A DNA stretch of 64,000 bases from assembly GCA_964619725.1 (NCBI GenBank), contig CAZUFC010000013.1, positions 1 through 64,000 of the forward strand, written 5' to 3'. Positions 18,533 through 48,696 of this stretch are shown here, piece after piece. The first letter of the stretch is position 1. Each line of letters begins with the position of its first letter. The position numbers and the translations under genes are program-made. Source of the DNA: an uncultured bacterium. Its GTDB lineage: Bacteria; CSSED10-310; CAZUFC01. The notes beneath the pieces are model-generated. The model worked only from the letters and a program-made list of their open reading frames with translations, was not told the origin of the DNA and did no database searches.

Positions 18533-18645
18533 ATTTACCCTCCTGAAAGAAACTTGAAAAAATAATAACACAAAGTCGGTTCAAGGATTAAAGGTTTTAC
18601 CGGAGCCACAGGAATCAGTTCGCCTGAAATACCTTAACCCGTCCA

Positions 18646-21383: not shown

Positions 21384-21403
21384 TTTATCAGGAGGAATGA
21401 CAA

Positions 21404-21622
21404 ATGTGTGTTGCCGTTCCTGGTCGTATTAAATCGATTGAAGGAACAGAAGCGGAAGTAGAGATCGGCGGAATAACAAGACGCACGAGTCTCTATCTGA
21501 CTCCTCAGGCGAAAGTGGGCGATTACGTTTTGATTCACGCCGGATACGCCATCAACGTCATAGATGAGGAGGACGCTAAAGAAACTTTAAGGCTTTTTCG
21601 CGAAATAGCCGAAGCAGGCTGA
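21404..21622 (+). CDS. hypC: Hydrogenase chaperone HypC
   Basis: MCVAVP N-terminus, VGDYVLIHAGYA. Confidence 0.95.
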   Translation: MCVAVPGRIKSIEGTEAEVEIGGITRRTSLYLTPQAKVGDYVLIHAGYAINVIDEEDAKETLRLFREIAEAG

Positions 21623-21629
21623 GGAAGAA

Positions 21630-22724
21630 GTGAAGTATTCTAAAGAATATCAGAATCCTGAGTATGCGGAAAAAATAATAAACCGGATAAGGCAGAGGAA
21701 GCTTCCGCGAGTCAGATTCATGGAGTTTTGCGGGGGACATACGGTGACCATTTTCCGTTATGCCATAAGGGATGTGCTGCCCGATGAGATTGAAATGGTT
21801 TCCGGTCCCGGATGCCCCGTATGCGTCACATCCATGCGTGACATTGATAAAGCCGTTTTGACAGCTCAGTCTGAAGACGCGATCATAACTACTTTCGGGG
21901 ATATGATGAAGGTGCCGGGCTCGCATTCCAGCCTGCAGGAAGCCAAAGCGGAGGGCGCTGACGTCCGGATGGTCTATTCAACCATGGATGCCCTGGAAAT
22001 TGCCCGAACCCATCGGGACAGAAAGGTCGTCTTCCTGGGCATAGGTTTTGAAACGACCGCTCCGACGGTTGCAGCCTCTATCCTGCAAGCCCGTGAGAAA
22101 GGCATAGACAATTACAGCGTTCTGTCCATGCATAAACTCAGTCCCCCGGCCATTCACGCAGTACTGGAGTCGGGAGATGTTAAATTGGACGGTCTGATCT
22201 GTCCGGGACACGTCTGTGCTGTAATCGGAGCGATTCCCTGGGAGAATCTGGCTCAAAAACATCATATACCTTGCGTTATTTCAGGCTTCGAACCCCTGGA
22301 TATTCTGCTGGCCGTCGATATGATCGCCGCACAAATTGAAGATAACCTCTCGAATGTGGAAATAGCTTATCGTCGAGGAGTAAAAAATGAGGGTAATGTT
22401 CATGCTTTAAATCTCATGAACAGAGTTTTTGAAACTTCTGATGCAGAATGGCGGGGATTGGGGAGAATACCTCGAAGCGGGTTGAAAATAAAAGAGGAAT
22501 ATTCCCGTTTTGATGCAGAAAAGGCTTTTGCCGTCGAACCCGAAGAAAGCCGTGAACCTCCGGGATGCATTTGTGGAGAGATACTGAGAGGAGTGAAAAC
22601 GCCTCTGGATTGCAAACTTTTCGGGAAAAAATGCACACCGGAATCTCCCGTGGGCGCATGCATGGTTTCTGCAGAAGGCTGTTGTTCGACTTATTTTCTG
22701 TACGGAGGAGCAATTGGAAAATAA
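21630..22724 (+). CDS. hypD: Hydrogenase maturation protein HypD
   Basis: MEFCGGHT, GPGCPVCVT, GFETT, PGHV, C-terminal Cys cluster. Confidence 0.97.
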   Translation: MKYSKEYQNPEYAEKIINRIRQRKLPRVRFMEFCGGHTVTIFRYAIRDVLPDEIEMVSGPGCPVCVTSMRDIDKAVLTAQSEDAIITTFGDMMKVPGSHSSLQEAKAEGADVRMVYSTMDALEIARTHRDRKVVFLGIGFETTAPTVAASILQAREKGIDNYSVLSMHKLSPPAIHAVLESGDVKLDGLICPGHVCAVIGAIPWENLAQKHHIPCVISGFEPLDILLAVDMIAAQIEDNLSNVEIAYRRGVKNEGNVHALNLMNRVFETSDAEWRGLGRIPRSGLKIKEEYSRFDAEKAFAVEPEESREPPGCICGEILRGVKTPLDCKLFGKKCTPESPVGACMVSAEGCCSTYFLYGGAIGK

Positions 22725-23718
22725 GATACTTTTATCACATGGAAGCGGTGGTAAACTTTCACAGAAGTTGGTTCGGGAAGTATTTGTCGATGAATTGCAC
22801 AATGAATTTTTAGATAAACTGGACGATTATGCCGCTTTCACCGTCAAAGGGAAGATCGCTTTCACGACCGACAGTTACGTTATAAATCCGATTTTTTTCC
22901 CAGGCGGAGACATCGGTAAACTGGCCGTCTGCGGAACAGTGAACGACGTTTCGATGTCCGGGGCAAGACCTCTGTATTTGAGTCTGGGGATGATTATTGA
23001 AGAGGGGTTATCGATAGAGGATTTGAAGAGAATCGTAAAGTCTGTGCGGATGACGGCGGAGGAAGCTGGAGTGAAAATAGTGGCAGGAGATACAAAGGTA
23101 GTCCACAAAGGGAAAGCGGACCAGCTTTTTATTAATACGACGGGAATAGGAGAAATACCTGACGGCGTAAATATATCAGGAAACAATGCTCAGCCTGGTG
23201 ATGCCGTAATAGTGAGCGGAACGATAGGAGATCACGGCATAGCCGTCATCAGCAGGAGAGAAGGGTTGGAATTCGGGACGGAGCTGGAAAGCGACTGCGC
23301 CCCGCTCAACAGACTGGTTGAAAAAATGCTTGGCATCTGCCCGCAGATTCATTGTATGAGGGACCCCACCAGGGGAGGATTGGCGGTTACCTTAAATGAA
23401 CTGGCGGGGCAATCAGGCGTCGGCATTCATCTGAGACAGAAAGATATACCCGTCAGGGAAGAGGTTGAAGCCGCTTGCGAGATGCTGGGCTTCGATCCTC
23501 TGTATGTTGCTAACGAAGGAAAATTGGTCGCATTCTGTCCATCGCAATATGCCGATAAAATCGTCGAAACCATGAGAAGAACGCGATACGGTGAGAATGC
23601 CGCCGTTATCGGCGAGGTCGTTTCCCGGGGGCCGGGAAAAGTGGTCCTGGAAACGTCCATCGGCGGATCGAGAATCGTCGATATGTTGGTCGGCGATATG
23701 CTTCCGAGGATTTGTTGA
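22714..23718 (+). CDS. hypE: Carbamoyl dehydratase HypE
   Basis: HGSGG, TTDSYV, GTVND, RDPTRGG, C-terminal PRIC. Confidence 0.97.
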   Translation: MENKILLSHGSGGKLSQKLVREVFVDELHNEFLDKLDDYAAFTVKGKIAFTTDSYVINPIFFPGGDIGKLAVCGTVNDVSMSGARPLYLSLGMIIEEGLSIEDLKRIVKSVRMTAEEAGVKIVAGDTKVVHKGKADQLFINTTGIGEIPDGVNISGNNAQPGDAVIVSGTIGDHGIAVISRREGLEFGTELESDCAPLNRLVEKMLGICPQIHCMRDPTRGGLAVTLNELAGQSGVGIHLRQKDIPVREEVEAACEMLGFDPLYVANEGKLVAFCPSQYADKIVETMRRTRYGENAAVIGEVVSRGPGKVVLETSIGGSRIVDMLVGDMLPRIC

Positions 23719-23719
23719 T

Positions 23720-24061
23720 ATGCACGAATTATCCGTTACCCAAAGCATGCTTGAACTTGTTCTGAAACAAGCTGAGGAAAATAATGCTTCAAAAGTCGAA
23801 AAAATAAACATAGTTATCGGTCACATGACCGGGATCGTCGACGAGTGCGTCAAATTTTATTTTGATTTTTTAAGTAAAGGAACCATTGCAGAAGGCGCCG
23901 AACTTTCTGTACAGACGCTGCCTACTCAAGCCGAATGCCGAGATTGCGGTGAAAAATATGAAGTCGGGGAGCTTGACTGGAGTTGTCCTTCTTGCGGAAG
24001 CCTTCGCATCAAGATGGTCTCAGGAAAAGAACTTTATGTGGAAAGTATAGAGGTGGAATAA
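23720..24061 (+). CDS. hypA: Nickel metallochaperone HypA
   Basis: MHELS start at 23720; CRDC/CPSC zinc motifs. Confidence 0.95.
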   Translation: MHELSVTQSMLELVLKQAEENNASKVEKINIVIGHMTGIVDECVKFYFDFLSKGTIAEGAELSVQTLPTQAECRDCGEKYEVGELDWSCPSCGSLRIKMVSGKELYVESIEVE

Positions 24062-24063
24062 AA

Positions 24064-24723
24064 ATGGAAGTTAAAGTACTGAAAAATATTTTGGGCGCGA
24101 ACGATCAAATCGCTGGGGAGAATCTCAGAATAGCCCGGGAGAAAAAAGTCTTTGTGGTCAACGTTATGGCTACTCCGGGCGCCGGCAAAACGAGCCTTAT
24201 TCTGCACACTATCAGGAAACTGAAGAGAAAGGTCAGAGTCGGAGTCATTGAGGGAGATGTCGCCTCTCAGGTGGATGCTGATATTGTCGCCAAAGAGGAC
24301 GTTCCGGTTCTTCAGATAAATACCGGCGGCGCATGTCACCTTGATGCGCGCATGCTCTCAGGCGCTTACAAGGATATGGACCTTGATCAGATCGATCTGC
24401 TCTTCATTGAAAACGTGGGTAATCTCATCTGCACGGCCGGATACAACCTGGGCGAACACCTTAAAATAGTCATATCAAGCGTCCCCGAAGGCGATGATAA
24501 GCCCTATAAGTATCCCCACATGTTCCACAAAGTCGATGTCGTTCTGCTGAATAAGGTCGACCTGAAACCTTATGTAAAATTTAATTTCGATTCCTTTGAA
24601 AAAGCCGTCGGCACGATTAATGAGAACCATACCATTCTGCCGGTTTCCTGTGAGACAGGTGAAGGCATCGATGAATGGATCGACTGGCTGATGAAAAAAT
24701 TCCGGGAGACAAATCCGTCTTAG
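24064..24723 (+). CDS. hypB: Nickel incorporation GTPase HypB
   Basis: PGAGKT, GACHLDA, ENVGNLIC, EGDDKP.KYP, NKVD. Confidence 0.96.
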   Translation: MEVKVLKNILGANDQIAGENLRIAREKKVFVVNVMATPGAGKTSLILHTIRKLKRKVRVGVIEGDVASQVDADIVAKEDVPVLQINTGGACHLDARMLSGAYKDMDLDQIDLLFIENVGNLICTAGYNLGEHLKIVISSVPEGDDKPYKYPHMFHKVDVVLLNKVDLKPYVKFNFDSFEKAVGTINENHTILPVSCETGEGIDEWIDWLMKKFRETNPS

Positions 24724-24791: not shown

Positions 24792-27107
24792 TTGAATAAA
24801 ATTCTGCCTTACATCCTCTTTTTTTCCTTCCCTTTTGTTTTTTTCGCCTGCTCAGAGCTAAAAAAAGAGCAGAACAGGAATACGTCTCAATACAAATTGA
24901 AATACGACCTAATCGAACTGAATCCGTATGCAGAAATTTTTGAAGAAACGAAAGAAATATTCTTCTACCGGGGGGCAGACAGAACCAACCTGATAGAAGG
25001 GTGGACGGACGATGAGGAAATGAGCTGGTCGAACAGGAAAAAATCAACCTTGCACGTGCATTTCATGAACAAAGATACTAAAGATATGAGCCTGAGAATT
25101 AAGCCTCTTCATTATCCGGAAAGTCCGGGGCAGACTTTGCAAGTTTTTCTGAACGGCGAGTCTCTTGAAAAGTTGAAATTGAAAAAGGGGTGGCGCACTT
25201 ATCGCGTGAGGCTGCCGGGGAGTCGCCTTAACGCGGGTTTGAACGAGATTCAATTTGAATACGGGTATTTAAAGGCTCCGAGAGACGTTTATCCCAATAG
25301 TACCGATCCGAGAACCTTGGGAGTCGGTTTCAGAGAAATTCGCTTTGATGGAAAAGAACCTCAGATCGGAGATAAAGGCGTGCCAGAGAAAAGTTCAGCG
25401 GAACAAGATTTTCCGCTTGAATATAAGAATGAGAATATCGTAATTAAACGACCATTGCAGATAGATTATTACCTGGAGTTACCTGAAAAATGCGAGCTTC
25501 GATTAAGCGGTTTTACGAAGGGGAATGCGGAAGTGACGGTAACCGCAGAAACAGACGAACAACCCGGAAGGGTGCTGGGAAAATACGTATTTGATGAACT
25601 GAAGGAGCCGCAGGAGCTGAATGTAAGGATACCCGAAATTTACAGCGGGATAGCCAGGCTTTCTTTCATCTTTTCAGTTAATTCCCTTGGAAACGGACTG
25701 GAGTTTTACGATGCGGGGCTTTACGCCGAGGTCAAACGCGGAGCGCTGGTTTCCAGTGCGGGGGGATTTTCCCGCGGTCAGAAAAAGGAAAATGAAAGCC
25801 GGCGCAGCGGCAATGTCATCATTTATGTAATAGATGCACTGCGGGCCGATGCATTGGGAGCCTACGGGAATCCCGAAGGTCTAACGCCGGAAATGGATGC
25901 TCTCGCTCAATCTTCCGCTCTGTTCGCAAAAGCGCGCAGTCAATCTTCCTGGACCCGTTCATCCGTCGCGACCATTCTTACGGGATTATATCCGTCTGAA
26001 CATGGAGCGCTGAAAAGGACCGACGGCATAAGGAAGGGGATAAAATCTATCGCCGACTATTTGAATGAGGCGGATTACACGACAATCGGATTAACGACAA
26101 ATGGAAATATTGAAGGGAAAAGTTTCAGGAGAGGATTCGATCATTTCCTTCATCTTGCCGAAAACCTGAATAACCCCGCTGTTCACAGAACCGGAATCGA
26201 ATTGAACGAAACGATCTTTGAGATAATCGATTCCTGTTCTGACCGCCCTTTCTTTATTTATGCTCATGCCACAGACCCGCACAGTCCCTACGTTCCTCCG
26301 AGAAAATACAAAGAACGGTTTTTCGGCATGAAAAACTCTCAATTGAACGGGAGTTCCGCAGCATTGAGAAGACTGCTTCGGGACCGGATTAACATTACGA
26401 ACGAACAGATCGACGCCGTTTATAATCTTTACAAAGCTGAAGTCGCTTTCGTCGACCGGGCTGTCGGCGATTTCATCAGAGGCCTTAAAACACGTAATTT
26501 ATGGAATGATATGCTTTTCATCCTTACAGCCGATCACGGAGAAGAGTTCTTCGAACACGGCAATCTGGAACACGGGCGAAGCCTTTACGAAGAACAGCTT
26601 CATATTCCACTTATCATTAAAATCGCTCATTCAGCCAATTCAAAACTGGTTTCTGCCCCTGTTATGCACCTCGATATTCTGCCTACCGCTCTCAGTCAAT
26701 TACAGCTAAATCAGATGGCCCGCAAATTGCCAGGCATCGATATGATGCTCCTGCCGGACTCCATAATTCGAAATCCTTCCAGAAACCTCTACGCTGAATT
26801 GAATCTCGACCGCTTGCAATTGGAAACTTTTTACTTCAAAAACTGGAAATTCATCCTTAATGAACTCAAATACGATTACTGGGGCGATATTGTTCCGAGC
26901 GGCGCATTATTGAACGTTAAAGAAGACCCTGAAGAAAAATTCGACCTGGCTGCTGAAAAGAAAATACTGGCCGGGTGGTTCAGGTTCCTTATACGCAAAA
27001 AGAAAATGATCCTGCTGAAAAGGGGAGATGAACGAGGCCCACGCGTGACCGAAGATAAGGGAGAGGAACTTTTGGAGGTCCTTAGAGCCTTGGGGTACGT
27101 CAGTTAA
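24792..27107 (+). CDS. Sulfatase-like hydrolase/transferase (Thr type) with N-terminal beta-sandwich domains, probable lipoprotein
   Basis: Lipobox-like FFAC; DPRTLGVGF; VIDALRAD, WTRSSVATILTG, DPHSPY, TADHGE; ends LRALGYVS. Confidence 0.88.
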   Translation: MNKILPYILFFSFPFVFFACSELKKEQNRNTSQYKLKYDLIELNPYAEIFEETKEIFFYRGADRTNLIEGWTDDEEMSWSNRKKSTLHVHFMNKDTKDMSLRIKPLHYPESPGQTLQVFLNGESLEKLKLKKGWRTYRVRLPGSRLNAGLNEIQFEYGYLKAPRDVYPNSTDPRTLGVGFREIRFDGKEPQIGDKGVPEKSSAEQDFPLEYKNENIVIKRPLQIDYYLELPEKCELRLSGFTKGNAEVTVTAETDEQPGRVLGKYVFDELKEPQELNVRIPEIYSGIARLSFIFSVNSLGNGLEFYDAGLYAEVKRGALVSSAGGFSRGQKKENESRRSGNVIIYVIDALRADALGAYGNPEGLTPEMDALAQSSALFAKARSQSSWTRSSVATILTGLYPSEHGALKRTDGIRKGIKSIADYLNEADYTTIGLTTNGNIEGKSFRRGFDHFLHLAENLNNPAVHRTGIELNETIFEIIDSCSDRPFFIYAHATDPHSPYVPPRKYKERFFGMKNSQLNGSSAALRRLLRDRINITNEQIDAVYNLYKAEVAFVDRAVGDFIRGLKTRNLWNDMLFILTADHGEEFFEHGNLEHGRSLYEEQLHIPLIIKIAHSANSKLVSAPVMHLDILPTALSQLQLNQMARKLPGIDMMLLPDSIIRNPSRNLYAELNLDRLQLETFYFKNWKFILNELKYDYWGDIVPSGALLNVKEDPEEKFDLAAEKKILAGWFRFLIRKKKMILLKRGDERGPRVTEDKGEELLEVLRALGYVS

Positions 27108-28679: not shown

Positions 28680-30497
28680 ATGACAAAGAAGAAAACAACG
28701 AAGCAGAAAACGACGACAAGGGGTCTCGGTAAAGCCGATAAAGAGGAAACACGAAAGAAGTTGCTGGAATTATTTTCGCGTGAGGACGAAATCGGGGACC
28801 GGCATCCCAGACGGGAGATATTCGAGAATTTAGAAAACATGAGGAGTTTCCGGTTCGGTTTGCTCAACAGGGACTTCGAAAGAATCAGGGACGTCTGCAA
28901 AGTCTTGTATTCACGGGGGAACGCGCTAATGACCGAGGTTCACTCGCTGGGTACGATTCTTCTGACTTCCGCCCGGCTTTCGGAAGCCAAAAAAATGAAG
29001 CAGGGCAAAAGCGGTGCAGTAATGGACCAGCATCTGGCTCGCTGTATCTCTGAGGGTATAATGAAGGATTTCGGAAGCGACATAACTACGGCTTTGTATG
29101 CGTTGCTGGACTTTCTTTATGAAAATGAGGACGAACCTGTTCGGACCGCTGCCAGGGGCGGGAGAGACCTGGTCAAAGAGATTCCTCTTCAGAGTAATCT
29201 TCTTGTCGCTTATATTGCGGTACACAGTTGTATAGCGTGGTTGCAGATGAATACGATAAATTTCACTCCATCAGTTCAAGATATTCTCCAGGACCCGGGC
29301 GATGAAGAGGCGTGGCTGATGTATGCGGAATATCTGGCTGAGAGCGGTGGGGTAACTGCCGTCGATAGAATTTCACGTATGCTGAACCGATACGCCAGGA
29401 ACAAGAAAAAAGTTAAGGCGAAATTGAAAAAAATCAGAGAAATGATCGAAAAAGAGTCTCCGGTCAAGAAGAAGACGGAATCCTATGGAGTTATAAGAAA
29501 TGCTTCCTGGATACTGAAAACGGCTCGTCCTCCTAAGTTTGACGATTTATTGAAGAGCAAGAAATTTAAAGAGCCCGAAGATGCTTTTCATGTAACAGCG
29601 TATTATAAGGAGATAAAGGATGAGACGTTTCGCATGGAGACTTCGATAGAGATCAGGGATATGAGGGATAAGAAGGCCGGCAAGCAGATACAGGAGAAAT
29701 TAAGAGAACTTGGTTTTAATGAAAAAACGGCCTGGATACTATACAGGATGAAGTTGCATCATTTGTCGGATTTAACTGATATACTGACGACCGACGATAT
29801 CACTTTACCGGGTATGTCGGAAAAGAAACTGAACAAGATTCGCCAGAAGATCAGAAAAGGCATCGGCTTCGCAGATCGGCCGCCTCGCACGGATTTGCAG
29901 CGCTTGGAACTGCCGACTCGACTGGAGCGCGTTCTTCTTGACGCCGGCATACGCCGTATAGATCAATTGAGAAACATGGACGACAAACAATTACTTGAGG
30001 TAAAGGGCGTCGGCGCCACATCCCTTACCACGATCAGAAATGCGGTCGGACGTTATGCGGATGCGGAAGTGGTCGAAGGGGCTGAGCTGGATGAGGAGTT
30101 CGAATCATTGAAGGAAGTCGGCGGAAACCGTCCTGAAGAGGTTTTTCACAGATTGATGGTGAGATTGGAGCCGGAGGAGCGGCGGGTGCTTTATCTCAGG
30201 TATGGGGTGGAATGGGAGGAACCGCTTGGCTACAGAAAGATATCGAATATTATGGGAATTTCGGAGTCTCAGTGTCGTGCGCTGAATGAATCCGCCATGA
30301 AAAAATTGAAGGACCCTGTTATTCTGAATTACATCAATGAGTGGATGACTGGTCCTTTTACTGAATGGACGCTCAGCCTGGTGCCGTCCATGTCGCGTAA
30401 CGCCATATCCCAGAAGGAAATTAAAGCGCACCTGGGAAGACGCGACAGAAATGCCCTGAATTTGCTTGAACTTCTCCTGTCTGAAGCTCAAAAATAA
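28680..30497 (+). CDS. Uncharacterised protein with two RNAP alpha-CTD-like repeats and a sigma70 region-4 HTH
   Basis: LQRLELPTRLERVLLDAGIRRIDQL..LLEVKGVGATSL (alpha-CTD-like); LEPEERRVLYLRYG..ISNIMGISESQCRAL..AMKKLK (sigma region 4). Confidence 0.75.
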   Translation: MTKKKTTKQKTTTRGLGKADKEETRKKLLELFSREDEIGDRHPRREIFENLENMRSFRFGLLNRDFERIRDVCKVLYSRGNALMTEVHSLGTILLTSARLSEAKKMKQGKSGAVMDQHLARCISEGIMKDFGSDITTALYALLDFLYENEDEPVRTAARGGRDLVKEIPLQSNLLVAYIAVHSCIAWLQMNTINFTPSVQDILQDPGDEEAWLMYAEYLAESGGVTAVDRISRMLNRYARNKKKVKAKLKKIREMIEKESPVKKKTESYGVIRNASWILKTARPPKFDDLLKSKKFKEPEDAFHVTAYYKEIKDETFRMETSIEIRDMRDKKAGKQIQEKLRELGFNEKTAWILYRMKLHHLSDLTDILTTDDITLPGMSEKKLNKIRQKIRKGIGFADRPPRTDLQRLELPTRLERVLLDAGIRRIDQLRNMDDKQLLEVKGVGATSLTTIRNAVGRYADAEVVEGAELDEEFESLKEVGGNRPEEVFHRLMVRLEPEERRVLYLRYGVEWEEPLGYRKISNIMGISESQCRALNESAMKKLKDPVILNYINEWMTGPFTEWTLSLVPSMSRNAISQKEIKAHLGRRDRNALNLLELLLSEAQK

Positions 30498-31058: not shown

Positions 31059-31212
31059 AGATATGAGCAGGGAGTGATAAACACAAAAAAATTATATATA
31101 AAGCCCGCGGTACGGTAATATTTCATTTGCCTTTCCCGGCGTTTTTCATTATGTTGAGTAGATTGTAAGGAGAATAATCTCTGTTATTCAAACAACAACC
31201 AAGGAGAACAAA

Positions 31213-32442
31213 TTGAATGGACTGAGGCAACTGAATTTCTTGTCGGTCATGATGATGTTGCTTTTTCTGTCGATTCCCTGGTCTTTTCTCCAGGCGCAGG
31301 AACCGACGGAAGAGATGTCGACGGAAATAACGGAGGAGGAACTCGCAGCTCCGGAAGCCGAGCCGGAAGTAACGGAGCCGACCTTGGAACCGCCCCGTTC
31401 TTTGACAGCCGGCGATAAGGAATACGACAAAGGCGGCGCTATTCAACTGAACTGGGAGCATCCGGAAGGAGAGAGACCTGAGATTTACGTCATTGAAAGG
31501 CGGAGGAAGGATACGGAGGAGTGGAGTTCGATCGGGGTTACTGTAAGAAACAGCTATGTGGACTCCAGCACGCGTGATGACGTGGAATATCAATACCGGA
31601 TAAAAGCTGCGGCCGGAGAGGAGGAAAGCGAATTCATCGTCAGCGATTTAGCCGTCAGCAGCGATACTTGGTTCAGAGCCGACCGGTTGACTATATTCAT
31701 AAGCATCGTAATTTTTACGTCATTTGTCGTTTATTTCATCCTGGCGGCTCGTCGCGGCGTTGAACTGTTTATTCGGAGGATACCCGGTTTGACGGCAGTT
31801 GAGGAGGCCATCGGAAGAGCGACGGAGATGGGGCGGCCGGTTTTGTATGTTCCCGGCACCGGATACATTGAAGACGTTGCGACTGTCGCTTCCTTGAATT
31901 TGCTCGGTGAAATAGCCCGGAGGACCGTCAGATACAACGTCAGGATTATTTGTCCGAACATGGACCCAATCGTTTATACGGTGGCCAGAGAAATCGTCAA
32001 GGAAACTTATGCCCAGGAAGGTCATCCGGACTTTTTTGATCCCAATTCAGTATTTTTTGTAGTTAGCGATCAGTTTGCCTTTGCCGCAGCAGTGGACGGC
32101 ATTATGATCAGGGAAAAGCCTGCCACGAATTTTCTTTTGGGACTGTTCCGCGCTGAATCTCTGATTCTGGCCGAAACGGGAGCCATGACGGGAGCGATTC
32201 AGATAGCCGGAACCGACGATACTTCGCAGCTTCCGTTTTTCATTACGGCATGCGACTATACTCTGATCGGAGAAGAACTTTACGCTGCATCTTCCTATTT
32301 GTCAGGCGAACCGATTCTTCTGGGTACAATCAAGGCTCAGGATTACGGAAAATTAGTCATTCTGGCGGTTATGATTCTTGGAACTTTATTATCTCTTATC
32401 TTCAACATGGACATTCAGAATTGGTTATTCACATACATATAA
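31213..32442 (+). CDS. Fibronectin type III + DUF6754-like membrane protein
   Basis: Signal peptide, acidic linker, Fn3 (LNW..P, Y.IER, Y.YRI.A), TM, IRRIPGL.AVEEAIGRATEMG, LIGEELYAASSYLS. Confidence 0.8.
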   Translation: MNGLRQLNFLSVMMMLLFLSIPWSFLQAQEPTEEMSTEITEEELAAPEAEPEVTEPTLEPPRSLTAGDKEYDKGGAIQLNWEHPEGERPEIYVIERRRKDTEEWSSIGVTVRNSYVDSSTRDDVEYQYRIKAAAGEEESEFIVSDLAVSSDTWFRADRLTIFISIVIFTSFVVYFILAARRGVELFIRRIPGLTAVEEAIGRATEMGRPVLYVPGTGYIEDVATVASLNLLGEIARRTVRYNVRIICPNMDPIVYTVAREIVKETYAQEGHPDFFDPNSVFFVVSDQFAFAAAVDGIMIREKPATNFLLGLFRAESLILAETGAMTGAIQIAGTDDTSQLPFFITACDYTLIGEELYAASSYLSGEPILLGTIKAQDYGKLVILAVMILGTLLSLIFNMDIQNWLFTYI

Positions 32443-32463
32443 CGATGGAGGATTTGTTCGATT

Positions 32464-33126
32464 ATGAAACGTAAATTACCTCTGGCGCTTGTTTTCATCC
32501 TGGCGATATGGGGAATTCTGTCCTATTTCGTTTTTGAAAAGCATGTCCAGACTGCCGATGAATTATACAGAAATAAATTCCTGGTCATCATAGCGGCTTT
32601 CGCCATTATACTGGGAATCGGCAGTCTGATTCAGTACCACATCAACAAAATTAAGCATAAGCAACGTTACTGGCCCTACAGCATCGTTACATTATTATCT
32701 CTCGTCGTATCGTCGCTCATCGGAATCTTTGGGGGGCCCAGCGGTCAGGAAGGCTGGTTCAGTCCCGCGGTGGGTTCATTCCGGTTTGACATTCAGCAGT
32801 TATATGAGGGCATCATTGTTCCTTGCGGCTCGACTATGTTTTCCCTGCTGGCGTTTTTTATGAGCAGCGCCGCATACAGGGCGTTCAGGGCTCGCAACAT
32901 GCATGCAATCATGCTGCTGAGCGCAGCCTTCATCGTTATGATTGGTCAGATACCTCTCACAAACACGTGGATTCCCTGGGTCTTCGAAATAAGACAGTGG
33001 ATACTCGATGTTCCCAATCTCGCTGCCAAGAGGGGAATACTTATAGGCATAGGTTTGGGCAGCATCGCTACTTCACTTAAGATTATTCTCGGCATTGAAC
33101 GTTCCTGGTTAGGAGGTGGCGACTGA
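32464..33126 (+). CDS. Conserved hypothetical integral membrane protein
   Basis: About 6 TM; TMFSLLAFF..SAAYRAFR, W...VPN.AAKRGI.IG, LGIER motifs. Confidence 0.85.
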   Translation: MKRKLPLALVFILAIWGILSYFVFEKHVQTADELYRNKFLVIIAAFAIILGIGSLIQYHINKIKHKQRYWPYSIVTLLSLVVSSLIGIFGGPSGQEGWFSPAVGSFRFDIQQLYEGIIVPCGSTMFSLLAFFMSSAAYRAFRARNMHAIMLLSAAFIVMIGQIPLTNTWIPWVFEIRQWILDVPNLAAKRGILIGIGLGSIATSLKIILGIERSWLGGGD

Positions 33127-34001
33127 TGCACTGGTCAGAAAAGCTGATACAAATAGATCGACGAATTATTTTCCTCATAGTGGCGATTGTGATGATCATT
33201 CCCATTATTTTTCCTTTTGGGATGCCGATAAGGGTTTCCAGGCCCACTCAACAGCTTTACGACGCTGTGGAGGAGTCGGCGGCGGACGGCAACAGAGTCG
33301 TTATGATATCCGCTGATCTTGATCCCAAGGATCAGCCTGAGCTTTACCCGATGCTTGTTTCGGTTATGAGGCATTGTTTTCACAGGAATATCCGTGTTCT
33401 TATACTGTGTTTGTACGCACCGAGTCTGGGGTTGGCGGAACAGGCTATTCAGCAGGTTACGGCAGAGTTTAAAGAATCGGGAAACGACAAAGTGAACGGC
33501 GAAGATTACGTTTTCCTGGGTTGGAAGCCTCCGCCTATCATCCCGTTGCTCGGTATGGGCGAGGATATACGTCAGGTTTTCCCCAGGGATTTTTATGGCG
33601 TTCCCATTTACGACCGACCCATGATGAACAACATACGTAATTACCAGGATGTCGATATTTGCGTGGCCCTTTCCGGAGGCAGTCCGCCCCTATGGTATGT
33701 GGCTTATGCTCAGGTCAGGTTCGACCTGAGAGTCGGGGCCGGCTTTACGGCTGTTTCCGCTGCAGATATGTACCCCTACTTGCATTCAGGACAGTTCAGC
33801 GGGCTGCTCGAAGGCATGAAAGGCGCCGCTGAATACGAAGCGATGGTGCAATCCGCCTTTAAAGACGAAAACAGAAGGTTGGCTACTGAAGGCATGAGCT
33901 CACAATCGTTATCTCATCTCAGTATCATTGTCTTCATCATTATCGGCAATATCGGATACTTCACTCAACGAGCCTTGTCGAAAAGGAGGATTACATCGTG
34001 A
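33126..34001 (+). CDS. Conserved hypothetical membrane protein with large extracytoplasmic domain
   Basis: IDRRIIF TM, GEDYVFLGW, PYL.SGQ..GLL.GMKGAAEYE, C-terminal TM ending IIGNI; TGATG overlap with the upstream gene. Confidence 0.85.
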   Translation: MHWSEKLIQIDRRIIFLIVAIVMIIPIIFPFGMPIRVSRPTQQLYDAVEESAADGNRVVMISADLDPKDQPELYPMLVSVMRHCFHRNIRVLILCLYAPSLGLAEQAIQQVTAEFKESGNDKVNGEDYVFLGWKPPPIIPLLGMGEDIRQVFPRDFYGVPIYDRPMMNNIRNYQDVDICVALSGGSPPLWYVAYAQVRFDLRVGAGFTAVSAADMYPYLHSGQFSGLLEGMKGAAEYEAMVQSAFKDENRRLATEGMSSQSLSHLSIIVFIIIGNIGYFTQRALSKRRITS

Positions 34002-34684
34002 GCATATCTCCTGAATTTTGGATTTGGATACAGGCTTTACTGACGCTGTTTATCTTTTCGTTTCTTTATAAGGATAATCCGTTTTACCGGTTCGCCGAGC
34101 ATCTGTTCATTGGCGTTTCCAACGGGTACTTCATTACGTTGATATTTTACAACGTCGTCGTTCCCATGCTTTACGATCCCATTCGCATGGGATTCCAGCA
34201 ACTGGCGGAAGAGGGATTATCCTGGCAACTGTTCAATCCCATAAACGAAGCCAATTTTTTCGTGATAATACCGATTCTCATCGGAAGCCTCTATATCACC
34301 CGATTCATTCCGAAAATCTCCTGGATGATTCGCATACCCATCGGCGCCACTATGGGATACTCCGTCGCCATCGCCATTCCGGCGCTGCTGGAAGCTTCGA
34401 TACTCAAACAATTGAAATCTTCAATCCTGACGCAGGCGGACATGACGGGTTTCTGGCCCAGCGTAAGTTTGATTCTTACGCTGCTCGGTACCCTCGCCAC
34501 GCTGGTCTACTTCTTCTTTTCCAAAGAACATAAAGGCGCATTAAAAATAACTTCGCAGATCGGAATCGCTTTCGTGATGGTCGCTTTCGGCGCCTCTTTC
34601 GGTTTAACCGTCCTGGGTCGTGTGGCCCTGGCCATCGGCCGTTTCGTGTTCCTGTTCAAAGACTGGCTGGGCATGTCCCTTTAA
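33998..34684 (+). CDS. Conserved hypothetical integral membrane protein
   Basis: SFLYKDNPFYRFAEHLFIG, YFFFSKEH, MVAFGASFG.TV.GR; GTGA overlap. Confidence 0.85.
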   Translation: MSISPEFWIWIQALLTLFIFSFLYKDNPFYRFAEHLFIGVSNGYFITLIFYNVVVPMLYDPIRMGFQQLAEEGLSWQLFNPINEANFFVIIPILIGSLYITRFIPKISWMIRIPIGATMGYSVAIAIPALLEASILKQLKSSILTQADMTGFWPSVSLILTLLGTLATLVYFFFSKEHKGALKITSQIGIAFVMVAFGASFGLTVLGRVALAIGRFVFLFKDWLGMSL

Positions 34685-34730: not shown

Positions 34731-34786
34731 TGTTCTGTGCCGTTGTCCGGTTAGTCTCGCCGTGTGCCGGACGACGGCGCAGAATA
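34731..34786 (+). terminator. Long stem-loop closing the four-gene membrane operon
   Basis: 20-bp stem with three G-U pairs, 16-nt loop, followed by a pyrimidine-rich tract. Confidence 0.55.
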
Positions 34787-36401: not shown

Positions 36402-38330
36402 ATGGAATCGAAAGGCTTTGATTTTTCAAGGCAGTTTTTCATTAGAGCAAAGACGGGATTGTTAAGCGGTTTATGTGCCGGCGCGCTTATGGGGTTGATT
36501 GAAGGCGCCTGGGTTTTTACGATCAACTGGGGAACCGTGAAACCTTATATTTTACCTTACGGCGCTGTTCTTTACGGGATCATAGGATTATTCGCGGGAT
36601 TGGGAGCGGGAATCGCCCTGGGTGTAATCGCGGTTATTCTGAAAAGGACTACCTTGCCTGCGAACAGTTACGCTTTTATCGGAAGCGCTTATTTCTGGGG
36701 ATTGTTTTTTATTTTATCGCGGTTCAGGATTTTCAGAGACGTCATGAAAGAACATGCTTTGCCGTTGTGGCTGCAAATGGGTTTGTTCGCCGGAAGTCTC
36801 GTTTTATTCCTTTTATCCTTCGTGCTGCTCAGGCTCATTCTGCGAAAAGGGATTTTTCAGCATCTAACGAAAATCTCCGGCAGCGCTGCGTTGTTCATTA
36901 TTTTGGCGGCGCTGAGTTTCTTTGTTGGAAGCATACTCAATCCCGTCGAACAGGAATACGCGGATACCCAGCTTGGCCTCAGTCCCGAAATGAAGGACAA
37001 ACCGAATATTTTCTATGTGGTGGTGGATACGTTGCGGGCTGATTATGTTACGGCCTATGGATATAGAAAGGCGTTTACGCCTAATCTGGACAAGTTTGCA
37101 GAGGATGCCGTCCTATTTGAGAAGAATATCGTTCAGTCTTCCTGGACTCGACCTTCCGTCGCCTCTCTGCTGACATCTCTTTATCCGTCGTCGCATCAGG
37201 CTTTCAGAAAACCGGACGTTTTGTCGGATGAAGTGCATTCCATAGCCGAAGTTTTAACCGATGCGGGATGGGTGACGTCAGGCATAGCGAACAACATAAA
37301 CATCTCGCCGGGCTTTAATTTCCACCAGGGATTCACCGATTACATATATCTGTCTCCCGACTATTATTTTTTCGCTGACTCAGGCGGCTCAACTCTGGCC
37401 TTTTATCAAATATTAAGGAGAATAAAGGAAAGATTCCTGGGCTCCAAAAAATACGTGAATCACTACTATCAGGATGCGGACGTCGTAAACGAAACATTCT
37501 TCGATTGGATCGACAAACGGGGCATAGACCGAAAATTCTTTGCTTTTATTCATTATATGGACCCTCATGATCCTTATTTCGTGCATCCTTATAACGGAGT
37601 CGGATATGCCAGGGTCAGCATGCCTGACCCGGACCCGGATATGGCGGATGAGATGATTAAGGCTTACCGGCAGGAAGTGGAATTTTTCGACGAAAAATTC
37701 GGCGACTTTATTGACCGTTTAAAGCGTATGAATTTATACGAAGATGCCGTCATCATTCTTACCGCTGACCACGGGGAAGAATTTTACGAACACGGCGGAT
37801 GGTGGCACGGGACCACTTTATACGAAGAGCAGATTCATGTGCCTTTGATAGTCAAGTTGCCCTCGAACAGAGCAGCCGGGACATCCGTAAAGCGTATGAT
37901 ACGGAGCATAGATATACCTTCCATGATCCTTGGTGAAGTAGGCATTGAGCAACCGGATTCATGGCAGGGAATACCCTTTCCCGTTCCTCCTCCAGAAGAA
38001 GAATTGGCGGAAAAAGTTCCCATGGTTTTTTCAGAAGAAGATTTTGAAGGCAATGTTCTCGCTTCGCTCAGGACGGAAACATGGAAACTTATTAAAGCGA
38101 ATCCCGGCAATCCCCGGGGGCTTCCGACTGAGGAATTGTTCAATTTGGAGGAAGACCCATTGGAAAAGAAAAATTTAAGAGACCAGGAAATCGTGTGGCT
38201 GAAGAAATTGGGCTATCATATGGGCGAAGCCTTGCAGGAAGCAGCAGCGTCGCGAGTGGAGAGGAGCACCGCCGATCTGGATGAAGACACCATTCAGCGT
38301 TTGAAAAAATTGGGATATGTTGAAGAATGA
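36402..38330 (+). CDS. Membrane-bound sulfatase-like hydrolase/transferase (5 TM + Thr-type catalytic domain, LtaS-like topology)
   Basis: VVDTLRAD, WTRPSVASLLTS, HYMDPHDPY, TADHGE; ends LKKLGYVEE. Confidence 0.9.
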   Translation: MESKGFDFSRQFFIRAKTGLLSGLCAGALMGLIEGAWVFTINWGTVKPYILPYGAVLYGIIGLFAGLGAGIALGVIAVILKRTTLPANSYAFIGSAYFWGLFFILSRFRIFRDVMKEHALPLWLQMGLFAGSLVLFLLSFVLLRLILRKGIFQHLTKISGSAALFIILAALSFFVGSILNPVEQEYADTQLGLSPEMKDKPNIFYVVVDTLRADYVTAYGYRKAFTPNLDKFAEDAVLFEKNIVQSSWTRPSVASLLTSLYPSSHQAFRKPDVLSDEVHSIAEVLTDAGWVTSGIANNINISPGFNFHQGFTDYIYLSPDYYFFADSGGSTLAFYQILRRIKERFLGSKKYVNHYYQDADVVNETFFDWIDKRGIDRKFFAFIHYMDPHDPYFVHPYNGVGYARVSMPDPDPDMADEMIKAYRQEVEFFDEKFGDFIDRLKRMNLYEDAVIILTADHGEEFYEHGGWWHGTTLYEEQIHVPLIVKLPSNRAAGTSVKRMIRSIDIPSMILGEVGIEQPDSWQGIPFPVPPPEEELAEKVPMVFSEEDFEGNVLASLRTETWKLIKANPGNPRGLPTEELFNLEEDPLEKKNLRDQEIVWLKKLGYHMGEALQEAAASRVERSTADLDEDTIQRLKKLGYVEE

Positions 38331-38364: not shown

Positions 38365-40092
38365 ATGTCTGAATCCAAAGGTCTGACCCGTCTGCTTATC
38401 ATCGGTCTGGACGGCGCGGACTACAATATCGTACGACAATTCATGCGGGAAGGCGATCTGCCCAATCTTGCCGGTGTGGCGCAAGAAGGTGTTTTCGGCA
38501 AATTGCGCTCCACCTTGCCTCCCTTTACATTCCCGGCCTGGTCGTCTTTCCTGACAGGATGCAATCCCGGAAAACATGGAATTTTCGATTTTACCAGACG
38601 GATTCTTTCTACCTACAAAGTGAAATTTGTAAATTCTCACTCAAGATGCAGACCCTCCGTCTTCAAAATTCTCGATCAGGCTAACTGTCGTTCCGGCGTT
38701 ATGGGAATACCTACGACCTATCCCCCTGAAAAAATTAAGGGCTTTATGATCAGCGGTTTCGACGCGCCGGTTACTGTCGGCGTCGATAAGTCTTTCATGC
38801 AGCCTCCGCAGCTTTACCGGGAGATCAGAGATAATGTCGGCGAATTCGTTATCACGGAATTTCAGGAGTTGAGAAAAGGGAACAGGTGGCATGAAACAGC
38901 GTTGAACAGTCTCTTGAATACCGCTGAACGGCGCCGAAGAATCGCTGAATTCCTCCTTAAAAAAGGAGACTATGATTGTTTCATGGTTCTTTTCGGCGAA
39001 ACGGATACTGCCGGGCACCATTTCTGGGCTTTCCACGATCAGAATTCTCCCAGACACATTCCCGCAGATTCGGAAAATATAAAAATTGCCTTAAGACTCG
39101 TTTACAGGGCTGCAGATCGCGCCGTCGGAAACCTTATGGCTCTATGCGGCGAAAATACCGATTTGATGATCCTTTCTGATCATGGAATGGGAGGATCGAG
39201 CGACCAGGTTATCTATCTGAATCGGCTGCTCGCTCAGTGGGGCTACTTGAAATTTGCACCGAAAAAATTCAGTTCTTCTGTGATCGGCAAAGCAAAAAAT
39301 ATCGCATTGGATATTCTTCCGGCACATGTTCAGGAAATGGTTTTCAGAAAGGGAAAAGGTAAAATCGCAAATTGGGTCGAATCCGCAGTCCGCTTCCAGG
39401 GCATCAAGTGGAATCAGACAAGAGCCTTCTCCGAAGAGATGAACTCTTTGCCGTCAATATGGCTGCACGTTCAGGGCAGGGACCCCCTAGGTATCGTTAA
39501 GCAGGGAAAACAATACGAATCGTTAAGGTCGGAGCTCATTGGAAAACTGGAATCCTGGATGAATCCTTTCACTGGAAATAAAGTTTTTAAACATGTCCAT
39601 AAACGGGAGGATATCTATTCCGGAGAATGTCTTAAATTCGCCCCCGATTTGATCCTGGAGCCGGAATTATGCGGAAATTACGCCTATAATTTTCAGCATT
39701 CAAGCAAATCTCCCCCAGGCCATACCGCGCCCATAAGAAAATTGAATACGCATGAATTTGCGGGGTGTAAGGGCGAAACCATGAACGGAACTCATAGACC
39801 CGACGGCATCTTTTTCGCCCGCGGGCCCTCTTTCAAAAAGAATTACAAACTTACGGGCGCTTCGATTAAAGATATAACACCTACGATCTTGCAGTTGCTT
39901 CATGTGAACGCTGATTTGAAAATGGACGGCAGTTCGTTGCAACGGGCGCTGAATCAGAAAACTCAGCGGGTCGATGGCCGGTATTTTTCTGAAAGCCCGT
40001 CAGCCGAATATCAGGAAAATAAGAAAACGGAATTGACCGAGGAAGAAGAAAAAATTTTAAAAGAGCGACTGGAGAATCTGGGATATTTGTAG
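38365..40092 (+). CDS. Type I phosphodiesterase / nucleotide pyrophosphatase family protein
   Basis: IGLDGAD, STLPPFTFPAW, NPGKHGIFDF, D..GH.FW, SDHG, GTHRPDGIF; ends LENLGYL. Confidence 0.9.
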   Translation: MSESKGLTRLLIIGLDGADYNIVRQFMREGDLPNLAGVAQEGVFGKLRSTLPPFTFPAWSSFLTGCNPGKHGIFDFTRRILSTYKVKFVNSHSRCRPSVFKILDQANCRSGVMGIPTTYPPEKIKGFMISGFDAPVTVGVDKSFMQPPQLYREIRDNVGEFVITEFQELRKGNRWHETALNSLLNTAERRRRIAEFLLKKGDYDCFMVLFGETDTAGHHFWAFHDQNSPRHIPADSENIKIALRLVYRAADRAVGNLMALCGENTDLMILSDHGMGGSSDQVIYLNRLLAQWGYLKFAPKKFSSSVIGKAKNIALDILPAHVQEMVFRKGKGKIANWVESAVRFQGIKWNQTRAFSEEMNSLPSIWLHVQGRDPLGIVKQGKQYESLRSELIGKLESWMNPFTGNKVFKHVHKREDIYSGECLKFAPDLILEPELCGNYAYNFQHSSKSPPGHTAPIRKLNTHEFAGCKGETMNGTHRPDGIFFARGPSFKKNYKLTGASIKDITPTILQLLHVNADLKMDGSSLQRALNQKTQRVDGRYFSESPSAEYQENKKTELTEEEEKILKERLENLGYL

Positions 40093-47315: not shown

Positions 47316-47388
47316 GGGCCCATAGCTCATGTGGTAGAGCCACCGGCTCATAACCGGTAGGTGCCAGGTTCGAGTCCTGGTGGGCCCA
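47316..47388 (+). tRNA. tRNA with CAT anticodon, most likely tRNA-Ile2 (lysidine); CCA not encoded
   Basis: Cloverleaf: GGGCCCA/TGGGCCC acceptor stem, anticodon loop CTCATAA (CAT at 47349-47351), GGTTCGAGTCC T-arm; lacks initiator features. Confidence 0.92.
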
Positions 47389-47561: not shown

Positions 47562-48269
47562 GTGAATTCCAGGCTAAAAAAAGTGATCGAATTACAAAAA
47601 ATCGATCACGTCATCAGGGAAATAGAAGAACGGAAAAAGGAGGTTCCCCGAGCCGTTGACGAGCTGGACAGGGAACTTGAAGAATCGACCACAGTTCTGT
47701 CCGAATATCGTAAACGGCTCGAAACGATTGAAACGGACCGCCGGTCCAAGGAAAGAGATGTAGAATCGAACAACGAGAAAAAGAAGAAATATGAAACGCA
47801 GTTATACAGCGTCAAAACGAACAAGGAATATACAGCTCTGCTGAACGAAATTGAAGATATGAATCGCCAGAATTTGAGTCTGGAAGAAGAAATTCTGGAG
47901 CTGATGGAAGAAGCGGATTCGCTTAAGAAAACTCTGGCCTTGAAAGAAGCGGAATTTAAGGAAGAAAAACGTAATATTCAGAAGAAAAAACAGGTCAGGG
48001 AAGAAGGGCTGGAATCGTTAAACAAAAAACTGGAAGAGAATCAAAAGCAGAGGGCGGATATCCTTAAAGCGATTGACCGGAATTTGATGAACAGGTATCT
48101 CAGGATTTCGAAAGTACGCCGCAACGTCGTGGTCCCGATTAAAGGAAATGCCTGTTCAGGATGTTTTATGGTGGTCAGGCCGCAGGTCCTGGCAAGAGTG
48201 AGAGAAAGCGAGCAAATAGTAACTTGCGATAATTGTTCTCGAATATTATATTATGAAGAGGACGAATGA
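47562..48269 (+). CDS. Coiled-coil protein with C-terminal C4 zinc ribbon (DUF164 / CT398-like)
   Basis: LQKID start, NKEY.AL..EI, CSGC and CDNCSRILY. Confidence 0.9.
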   Translation: MNSRLKKVIELQKIDHVIREIEERKKEVPRAVDELDRELEESTTVLSEYRKRLETIETDRRSKERDVESNNEKKKKYETQLYSVKTNKEYTALLNEIEDMNRQNLSLEEEILELMEEADSLKKTLALKEAEFKEEKRNIQKKKQVREEGLESLNKKLEENQKQRADILKAIDRNLMNRYLRISKVRRNVVVPIKGNACSGCFMVVRPQVLARVRESEQIVTCDNCSRILYYEEDE

Positions 48270-48279
48270 TTCGTCCGGG

Positions 48280-48661: not shown

Positions 48662-48663
48662 TT

Positions 48664-48696
48664 ATGGTTGCGGTTGTCCGCAACCATTTTTATTTT
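48664..48696 (+). terminator. Intrinsic terminator after rnpB
   Basis: ATGGTTGCGG-ttgt-CCGCAACCAT followed by a T-tract. Confidence 0.8.

Follow-up and report, generated by a model that had tools for sequence, protein, structure and literature searches.

How is an operon to be interpreted when all four of its products are predicted membrane proteins and three of them match no catalogued protein family? This question is raised by a 64,000-nucleotide stretch of DNA (contig CAZUFC010000013.1 of GenBank assembly GCA_964619725.1, positions 1 to 64,000; hereafter the window) from an uncultured bacterium of the CSSED10-310 lineage. The operon consists of four open reading frames (ORFs), taken from the ORF listing and all on the plus strand: g1 (31213-32442; 409 amino acids (aa), TTG start), g2 (32464-33126; 220 aa), g3 (33126-34001; 291 aa) and g4 (33998-34684; 228 aa, GTG start). 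Comparison of genomes provides good support for the view that these genes encode the subunits of a single inner-membrane complex, belonging to a previously undescribed family. The role of this complex is a matter for more tentative proposals, which are weighed below against the conservation, predicted topology and genomic context of each subunit.

Conserved order and joint duplication of the four genes

The four genes are tightly packed. The TTG start codon of g1 lies 6 nt downstream of a ribosome-binding site (AAGGAG at 31201-31206; site and start codon together at 31201..31215, plus strand), and a 21-nt spacer with a GGAGG motif ahead of g2 separates the first two genes. The stop codon of g2 and the start codon of g3 share one base in the sequence TGATG, and the GTG start of g4 overlaps the stop codon of g3 in the sequence GTGA, with AAGGAGG just upstream. 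An earlier note on this DNA had described four co-oriented membrane genes with a 21-nt gap and TGATG and GTGA overlaps, and reading of the junctions confirmed each of these features. The gap ahead of g1 is 154 nt, and the next gene downstream of the operon starts at position 35008. A hairpin on the same strand (34731-34786), with a 21-bp stem and a 14-nt loop followed by a U-rich stretch, begins 47 nt past the g4 stop codon; its folding energy is -38.2 kcal/mol (z = -7.6), none of 200 shuffled sequences folded equally well, and a terminator scan also flagged its inner part. This hairpin is likely to be a terminator. It had been reported in the earlier note as a 20-bp structure closing the operon; it is indeed present, with 21 pairs, and lies 47 nt beyond the position at which that note had placed the end of the unit.

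A scan of the Genome Taxonomy Database (GTDB), with one genome per species, identified 618 places with a relative of g1, and 76 loci were kept for analysis, in which six-frame ORFs were compared with the window proteins. Relatives of g1, g2, g3 and g4 were found in 76, 71, 67 and 64 of these loci, respectively, most of the misses being at contig ends. In a stricter count, 88 g1 ORFs of at least 300 aa were considered, 67 of which were followed by at least 2500 nt of DNA; for 63 of the 67, the strand of g1 continues with g2, g3 and g4, arranged as in the window. As for the four exceptions, L022 and L049 do possess g4, the start of which was over-extended by the longest-ORF call, L009 (6753-11304) has the order g1-g1-g2-g3-g4, and L026 (6792-7925) has a lone g1 adjoining rplM. 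L010 and L035 also appear to have a lone g1, but with less downstream DNA. The median gaps at the three junctions across loci were 9, -1 and -4 nt, values biased towards overlap by the use of the longest-possible ORF starts. A second g3 follows g4 in two variant operons, with the order g1-g2-g3-g4-g3 (L037, 1444-6044; L054, 3752-8108).

The metagenome-assembled genomes (MAGs) carrying these loci are labelled as WOR-3, Stahlbacteria, Eisenbacteria, Edwardsbacteria, Coatesbacteria, Latescibacterota, Fermentibacteria, Poribacteria, Armatimonadota, Ignavibacteria, Desulfuromonadaceae and CSSED10-310, and the closest of the 76 loci, itself from CSSED10-310, is 59% identical. Archaea may also be represented, by one ESM Atlas cluster labelled mostly Bathyarchaeota, which is a lead only. 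The statement, in the earlier note, that this quartet recurs in candidate phyla is therefore borne out, with the genes in order for 63 of 67 g1 homologues in many uncultured lineages, and the recommended examination of gene neighbourhoods, covering 76 loci, revealed co-occurrence across genomes. The link drawn to anaerobic peptide fermenters proved too narrow, as the quartet is also present in MAGs of Poribacteria, which are aerobic sponge symbionts. The flanking genes differ between lineages, with purF upstream in WOR-3, and with aroK and aroB upstream and a TIM-barrel gene and a sulfatase gene downstream in Poribacteria, so the quartet can be regarded as a self-contained module.

The quartet has also been duplicated as a whole. 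Three tandem quartets are present in L005 and L046, two tandem quartets in L021, L029, L038, L050 and L064, and two convergent copies in L075; L005 and L041 together account for four copies in the 2.3-Mb genome CP070705.1. A tree of the DUF6754 domains (the conserved domain of g1) from 76 cassettes contains a 14-member clade, with a Shimodaira-Hasegawa-like approximate likelihood ratio test (SH-aLRT) support of 88, to which the second cassettes of L038, L050 and L064 belong, their first cassettes lying on the other side. The g3 tree has the same bipartition, on a branch with a support of 64: this division requires 1 change on the g3 tree, versus a mean of 13.0 for shuffled labels, and none of 500 shuffles gave a value as low. 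The g1 and g3 trees thus appear to recover two ancient cassette types, often found side by side. The subunits seem to duplicate and diverge together, because duplication occurs jointly, in tandem, and the g1 and g3 trees are congruent; such behaviour would be expected of the parts of one complex, and suggests, without proving, that the proteins bind to each other.

It is therefore well supported, from these comparisons, that the four proteins work together as one unit, and a hetero-oligomeric membrane complex is the natural reading, given that gene order is conserved, the junctions are tight and whole cassettes are duplicated together. The idea that the four genes are mere neighbours, with no complex formed, draws on the genomic nature of all the evidence for assembly, but it seems extremely improbable given the retention of the order in 63 of 67 testable cases across many phyla, the overlapping junctions, the joint duplication of cassettes and the congruence of the g1 and g3 trees. 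In a structure prediction for the complex (g1 residues 151-409 with g2, g3 and g4, scored on g1), a control in which g3 was replaced scored nearly as high as the real set.

Architecture and conservation of the subunits

The g1 protein is composed, from N- to C-terminus, of a probable signal peptide, a fibronectin type III (Fn3) domain, a transmembrane (TM) helix, a DUF6754 domain, a second TM helix and a short tail. Its N-terminal hydrophobic segment (residues 1-28; 31213..31296, plus strand, from hydropathy) is probably a signal peptide ending in LQA, with the cleavage site judged by eye. The Fn3 domain (residues 58-150; 31384..31662, plus strand) is predicted to lie outside the cytoplasmic membrane. 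The window protein alone has no Pfam fn3 match at E ≤ 0.01 and gives weak matches in the PDB (titin, E = 5e-4), whereas the profile of the g1 family matches the Fn3 domains of titin at E = 2.3e-37. In the AlphaFold2 (AF2) model, the predicted local distance difference test score (pLDDT) exceeds 90 over residues 60-150, and Foldseek searches with the g1 model returned Fn3 structures (E = 9e-8, TM-score against the target 0.72-0.78) and nothing besides. Residues 58-150 are thus an Fn3 domain as judged from the family profile and the modelled fold, and the secreted Fn3 domain that had been suggested for one of the subunits can be assigned to g1 on these grounds.

The first TM helix of g1 (residues 156-180; 31678..31752) is followed by the alpha/beta domain (residues 181-378; 31753..32346), which contains the GRATEMG and GEELYAA motifs, and by the second TM helix (residues 379-405; 32347..32427), all on the plus strand and with both helices delimited by hydropathy. 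Residues 151-401 match the Pfam family DUF6754 (PF20539) at E = 1.8e-111, with a score of 371.8 bits against a cut-off of 27 and a match spanning model positions 3-253 of 257. The homologues of g1 form at least 7999 clusters at 90% identity, a lower bound obtained with the 8000 best candidates scored. The DUF6754 domain is predicted to be cytoplasmic because only one TM helix separates it from the outside Fn3 domain that precedes it, and because segments rich in lysine and arginine border it; the stretch after TM helix 1 has a mean of 4.4 such residues per 20 residues in 82 sequences. Two of the subunits had originally been thought to carry large extracytoplasmic alpha/beta domains; this stands for g3, as described below, but not for g1, given the predicted topology and charged flanks of DUF6754. 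This domain is the best-conserved region of the quartet and its predicted location is the cytoplasm, which shifts the likely working end of the system to the cytoplasmic face. Forty columns of the domain are invariant in 60 sequences, and the invariant residues include R188, R202, E205, Q287, R300, E315, E321, Q330, C347, D348, E354 and E355; no residue of the g1 TM helices is invariant in the 82-sequence alignment. The AF2 model of g1 has a mean pLDDT of 65.8, with moderate values for residues 190-285 and values below 50 for residues 287-378, and the secondary structure that it predicts for DUF6754 points to a Rossmann-like fold.

Many relatives of g1 are much longer: 739 proteins of 717-2045 aa were found, some of them labelled as Cloacimonadota. 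The DUF6754 domain was always C-terminal in the 15 long forms scanned, whereas the N-terminal part reached up to about 1170 residues, giving a range of about 150 to about 1170 residues across forms. Two of the 15 have an fn3 domain, in one case together with a rhamnogalacturonan I (RGI)-lyase beta-sheet domain, and no fusion to an enzyme or to another subunit was found in these 15 proteins.

The g3 protein has a TM helix at each end and a predicted extracytoplasmic domain of 215 residues in between, with both termini inside; the N- and C-termini are positively charged, with means of 3.5 and 3.7 lysine plus arginine residues, respectively. AF2 models this protein with a pLDDT of 93.3 and a predicted TM-score of 0.87, as a single alpha/beta domain with parallel strands (Rossmann-like). 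It carries the GMKGAAEYE motif, and three residues of its TM helices are invariant in 33 sequences: P26, H264 and N275, the last two within TM helix 2. The g3 profile matches 5314 representatives at 50% identity with E ≤ 0.001, 4110 of them with E ≤ 1e-10. Long relatives (P0369, P0499 and others) carry large insertions at either of two fixed sites, one around residues 116-122 and the other around residues 245-250. Among 13 long relatives scanned, these insertions include a CARDB domain in one protein and HEAT repeats in another; the outside location predicted for the g3 domain agrees with the CARDB insertion because CARDB is a cell-surface type of domain. In the long forms examined, the insertions lie within g3, with no matches to g1, g2 or g4 and no fusion to an enzyme.

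The other two subunits are polytopic. Hydropathy and loop charges indicate about six TM helices for g2, with the N- and C-termini inside, and six to seven TM segments for g4, in agreement with the two polytopic subunits of about six helices originally described. The SAAYRAFR motif of g2 lies in a cytoplasmic loop between TM4 and TM5, and its near-invariant H59 and GIERxWLGG tail are also on the cytoplasmic side, according to the predicted topology. In g4, the KDNPFYRFAEH and FFFSxEHKG motifs lie in predicted cytoplasmic loops, and a conserved glycine-rich GFGASFG motif is found midway along the last hydrophobic stretch, of 39 residues. The conserved motifs of both g2 and g4 thus occupy predicted cytoplasmic loops, on the side of the membrane where DUF6754 is placed.

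All five motifs quoted in the earlier note are truly conserved, falling on alignment columns that are invariant or at least 90% conserved: GRATEMG and GEELYAA in 82 g1 sequences, SAAYRAFR in 35 g2 sequences, GMKGAAEYE in 33 g3 sequences and KDNPFYRFAEH in 31 g4 sequences. The absence of ATPase, Fe-S and heme motifs was also confirmed, as Walker A, CxxC and CxxCH are lacking from all four proteins. Mean pairwise identity differs strongly between parts of the quartet. It reaches 74% across phyla for residues 287-378 of the DUF6754 domain and 60% for residues 181-286, and falls to 48% for g4, 47% for g2, about 42% for g3, 30% for the Fn3 domain and 27-31% for the g1 TM helices (27% for TM helix 2). 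The best-conserved stretch of g1, residues 287-378, is yet the one for which pLDDT is below 50. Paralogues within a genome repeat the gradient seen across phyla; the two g1 copies of L044, for example, are 98% identical in the C-terminal half of DUF6754 versus 37% in the Fn3 domain.

Relation to known systems and possible roles

None of the four proteins could be linked to a family of described function. No Pfam or NCBIfam match was found for g2, g3 or g4, and g1 matches Pfam DUF6754, with no NCBIfam match. In PADLOC, no family matched any of the four proteins at E ≤ 0.01, so no known anti-phage defence system of that collection is matched. PDB sequence profiles yielded no match for g2, g3, g4 or DUF6754 alone, even at E ≤ 10, and lenient Pfam scans of every alignment member gave scattered, inconsistent weak matches only. 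Foldseek found no match for g3 in the PDB at E ≤ 0.001; its best neighbours were half domains of GT-B glycosyltransferases (E = 2.5e-3, TM-score against the query 0.35), and the other top matches were TIM barrels and G-protein-coupled receptor (GPCR) fusion proteins, which together indicate only a generic Rossmann-like fold for the g3 model. ESM Atlas searches gave no usable DUF6754 match outside its own family, and led to unnamed clusters only for g3. Comparisons of g1 with g3, and of the N- with the C-terminal halves of g2 and g4, by hhalign gave probabilities of at most 5.2%, with no sign of paralogy or internal repeats. No match to the quartet proteins was found in plasmid and phage collections, and a full-text search of the literature found no paper naming DUF6754 or PF20539, no paper combining WOR-3, 'fibronectin type III' and 'membrane', and nothing elsewhere on this gene set. 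Fn3 proteins of Poribacteria are discussed in general terms in parts of one article (PMC3909097).

The statement in the earlier note that the quartet has no assigned function accordingly holds, g1 containing a catalogued domain without a function and g2-g4 being in no family database; no characterised transporter, motor or enzyme family is matched, as judged from the Pfam, NCBIfam, PDB and PADLOC searches. The label 'Fn3/DUF6754-like' that it gave to the whole operon is correct for g1, through the Pfam match and the Fn3 profile, and does not extend to g2-g4, which match nothing. The Pfam family likewise covers only one of the four subunits, and its entry carries no function.

Several membrane systems resemble the quartet in layout. 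Like ATP-binding cassette (ABC) and tripartite ATP-independent periplasmic (TRAP) importers, it combines two polytopic membrane subunits with an alpha/beta subunit on the periplasmic side and a cytoplasmic part that is highly conserved; a further likeness is that a genome may carry several paralogous operons, and that outward-facing subunits can be present in additional copies. It differs from ABC importers in having no Walker A motif, no ABC family match and no ATPase gene conserved beside it (76 loci), and from both types in that no DctP, DctQ, DctM or binding-protein family is matched (33 g3 members at E ≤ 1), and in that its cytoplasmic domain is part of a membrane subunit. The g3 protein also differs from the binding proteins of these importers in being single-lobed and anchored at both ends, with no PDB match at E ≤ 0.001. 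The ExbB-ExbD-TonB and TolQ-TolR-TolA systems are likewise encoded by operons for inner-membrane subunits of the polytopic and bitopic kinds, including one periplasmic arm whose length varies, and occur in paralogous copies. There is no sequence similarity to these systems, however, the numbers of TM helices differ, no TM aspartate is invariant, and a true ExbB is encoded separately in L041; for 35 g2 members, 88 families were matched, and MotA_ExbB is absent from the 25 of these that were listed. Rnf and Nqr share with the quartet two membrane subunits of about 220 aa with six TM helices and a bitopic subunit with a periplasmic domain, and 10 of the 76 loci have an upstream gene for a soluble protein with a weak RnfC_N/NqrA_N-like segment (best E = 1.9e-4). 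Rnf and Nqr have a pair of homologous six-TM subunits of the RnfA/RnfE type, whereas no homology connects g2 with g4; no Rnf-Nqr family is among the listed Pfam results (E ≤ 1), and Fe-S and flavin motifs and subunits are lacking, with no CxxC, FMN-binding or Fer4 match in the four proteins. GT-B glycosyltransferases are cytoplasmic and have two Rossmann domains and a nucleotide-sugar site, whereas g3 has a single Rossmann-like domain predicted to lie outside the membrane, and matches no glycosyltransferase family. By the searches made, the quartet appears to lie outside every known kind of membrane system.

The reading tentatively favoured here is that of an ion-gradient-driven uptake system laid out like a binding-protein-dependent importer, which is possible rather than probable. 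The g2 and g4 proteins, with about 12-13 TM helices together, would form the path through the membrane, and the substrate would be captured or presented by the tethered alpha/beta domain of g3 in the periplasm together with the variable g1 ectodomain (here an Fn3 domain). The cytoplasmic DUF6754 domain may dock on the conserved cytoplasmic loops of g2 and g4, gating the path or coupling energy to it. As the conserved set includes no ATPase, either an ion gradient or an as yet unrecognised activity of DUF6754 would have to supply the energy. The order of conservation (cytoplasmic domain, 60-74%; polytopic subunits, 47-48%; periplasmic g3, about 42%; ectodomain, 30%) argues for an importer because it resembles that of ABC-type importers, in which the engine is more conserved than the permease and the permease more conserved than the binding protein. 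An importer is also suggested by the expansion of cassettes within small genomes (four in CP070705.1), by the extra copies of only g1 or g3 (L009, L037, L054), by the variation of the outward-facing modules, one form of which has a module of a carbohydrate-enzyme type (RGI-lyase), by the placement of the conserved g2 and g4 motifs on the predicted DUF6754 side, and by the fact that no conserved partner gene is needed.

A number of results weigh against this uptake system. No subunit matches a transporter family by sequence, g3 consists of a single Rossmann-like lobe, unlike the two-lobed known binding proteins, and g2 and g4 share no homology (hhalign probability 2.7%) and have no internal repeat, in which they depart from most transporter folds. 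Gene neighbourhoods give no consistent clue to a substrate (76 loci), and no Rfam element or riboswitch that might hint at one was found upstream of the operon in the window or at 19 loci. An identity of 74% across phyla is unusual for a substrate-specific transporter, and such near-invariance would suit an enzyme, or a domain binding a universal partner, at least as well. The pair of soluble proteins, a GlmL-family ASKHA protein and a 375-aa protein, encoded upstream at 10 of the 76 loci is also left unexplained by a transporter. The hetero-oligomeric secondary transporter or receptor of a new type proposed in the earlier note accordingly stands in part: a unit of four membrane proteins from no characterised family is supported, with no link in sequence or structure to any transporter fold.

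Other roles can be assigned to the same architecture, a transducer and an envelope-synthesis enzyme being the main rivals. The quartet could be a trans-envelope transducer of energy or force, like ExbB-ExbD-TonB, TolQRA or GldLM, with g2 and g4 conducting ions and g3 and g1 transmitting the resulting movement to the g1 ectodomain, which would serve as an arm of varying length across the periplasm and reach the wall or the outer membrane. This is rather unlikely, despite an ectodomain of about 150-1170 residues, with Ig-like or unassigned modules, attached to constant membrane and cytoplasmic parts, a membrane-anchored periplasmic alpha/beta subunit (g3) with invariant polar TM residues (H264 and N275), and several paralogous operons per genome, which are common for TonB systems too. 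The similarity to MotA, ExbB or TolQ that it would lead one to expect amounts to a sole match for one of 31 g4 members (E = 0.38), the bitopic subunits g1 and g3 have no invariant TM aspartate, and the best-conserved part is the cytoplasmic globular domain instead of the ion path. Moreover, an ordinary ExbB-type gene adjoins the quartet in L041 (PDB ExbB, E = 2e-11), so the quartet is no simple replacement for ExbB.

The high conservation of DUF6754 and its many invariant residues with acidic, basic or polar side chains look like an active site, and would suit a membrane-bound enzyme and exporter for an envelope polymer or lipid, in which DUF6754 would be catalytic, g2 and g4 would carry the product, and g3 would finish it or attach it outside. 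The Rossmann-like secondary structure predicted for DUF6754, the GT-B half domains that are the best, though weak, structural neighbours of g3, and the neighbours of the operon in the window, which include a flippase-like gene (LPG_synthase_TM) and membrane-anchored sulfatase-family genes, all fit such a role. It is nevertheless unlikely: this neighbourhood is not conserved, the flippase-like gene being found at none of the 76 loci and a sulfatase-like gene at 9, there is no match to a glycosyltransferase or other enzyme family and no conserved DxD or nucleotide-binding motif, and up to four paralogous cassettes with variable ectodomains in a small genome would be atypical of an envelope-synthesis core. 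A layout in which a TM helix joins a variable ectodomain to a conserved cytoplasmic domain is also receptor-like, and the two soluble proteins (GlmL-family and 375-aa) encoded directly upstream at 10 of the 76 loci are possible partners to which the cytoplasmic domain might signal when the outside domains sense a ligand. A transmembrane receptor is improbable, however, as no known output domain (kinase, cyclase or anti-sigma) and no conserved regulator nearby was found, and three further membrane subunits, bringing about 14 TM helices, exceed the needs of a sensor.

A broader description than that of an uptake system has about even chances of being correct: the quartet may represent a new class of machine, built of several subunits in the inner membrane and sharing no ancestry with the known superfamilies of transporters, motors and synthases, with a near-invariant and previously unrecognised cytoplasmic alpha/beta core (DUF6754) that would couple cytoplasmic events to variable periplasm-exposed modules. 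This machine would be prominent in the cell envelope of WOR-3, Cloacimonadota, Poribacteria, Eisenbacteria, CSSED10-310 and related uncultured phyla, with as many as four copies in a genome. The family is very large, given the numbers of g1 clusters and g3 representatives reported above, and is found in many phyla without cultured members, often in several copies per small genome, with one domain as conserved as a core housekeeping enzyme. Knowledge of its role would fill a gap concerning the feeding or envelope construction of its hosts, and the few known architectures of membrane machines might be joined by a new one. With only four genes and no conserved neighbour, the quartet is also a practical target for expression and cryo-EM.

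Accessory genes and other features of the window

The soluble 375-aa protein is encoded on the same strand ahead of g1 at 10 of the 76 loci (L036, L038, L040, L042, L050, L054, L058, L064, L072 and L075; for example, L036:2030-5032), 8-71 nt upstream in the seven loci measured. In 9 of the 10, its gene is preceded by that of an approximately 600-aa ASKHA protein of the GlmL/MutL family (PF13941; E ~1e-118 to 1e-130), which scores below the NCBIfam cut-offs for GlmL. The 375-aa protein has a mean column identity of 66% and a weak RnfC_N/NqrA_N-like barrel-sandwich signal, and no significant relative of it was found in the PDB (best E = 0.035). The loci with this accessory pair tend to hold both ancient cassette types in tandem, and the pair suggests that an ATP-using cytoplasmic protein works with the complex in some organisms. 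Neither the GlmL-family gene nor the 375-aa gene is present in the window.

In one WOR-3/Stahlbacteria lineage, a DUF4388 gene, small genes and an ExbB/TolQ homologue (PDB ExbB, E = 2e-11) lie downstream of g4 in L041 (11150-16268), L069 (11309-16434) and L060; ExbD-like and TonB-like genes were recognised by eye only at the same loci. About 5.5 kb upstream of the quartet in L041, the minus-strand segment 1938-2306 partially matches the bacterial 16S rRNA model (positions 39-400), and a full-length 16S gene is present at the same position in L069.

In the window itself, the genes upstream of the quartet for a 153-aa and a 605-aa protein and the downstream flippase-like gene were considered as parts of the system and rejected, each being found at 0 of the 76 loci. 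The 605-aa protein (28680-30497, plus strand), encoded two genes upstream of the quartet, has a helix-hairpin-helix resembling the C-terminal domain of the RNA polymerase alpha subunit and a sigma-70 region 4. Five sulfatase-family genes and one type I phosphodiesterase-family gene are spread over the window (248-1729, 1725-3170, 13019-14707, 24792-27104, 36402-38327 and 38365-40089); two of them encode proteins with long N-terminal extensions, and the product of 36402-38327 has several hydrophobic segments. A heterodisulfide-reductase/MvhD-like set (14960-18571, minus strand; FlpD, Fer4/FAD and CCG) adjoins the hydrogenase maturation genes hypF, hypD, hypE and hypB (19068-24720, plus strand), which points to an anaerobic, hydrogen-metabolising organism. 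A tRNA gene (47316-47388) and a bacterial class A RNase P RNA (48282-48663; 300 bits) are found on the plus strand, and the minus-strand ORF at 48249-48683 is spurious because it overlaps the RNase P RNA.

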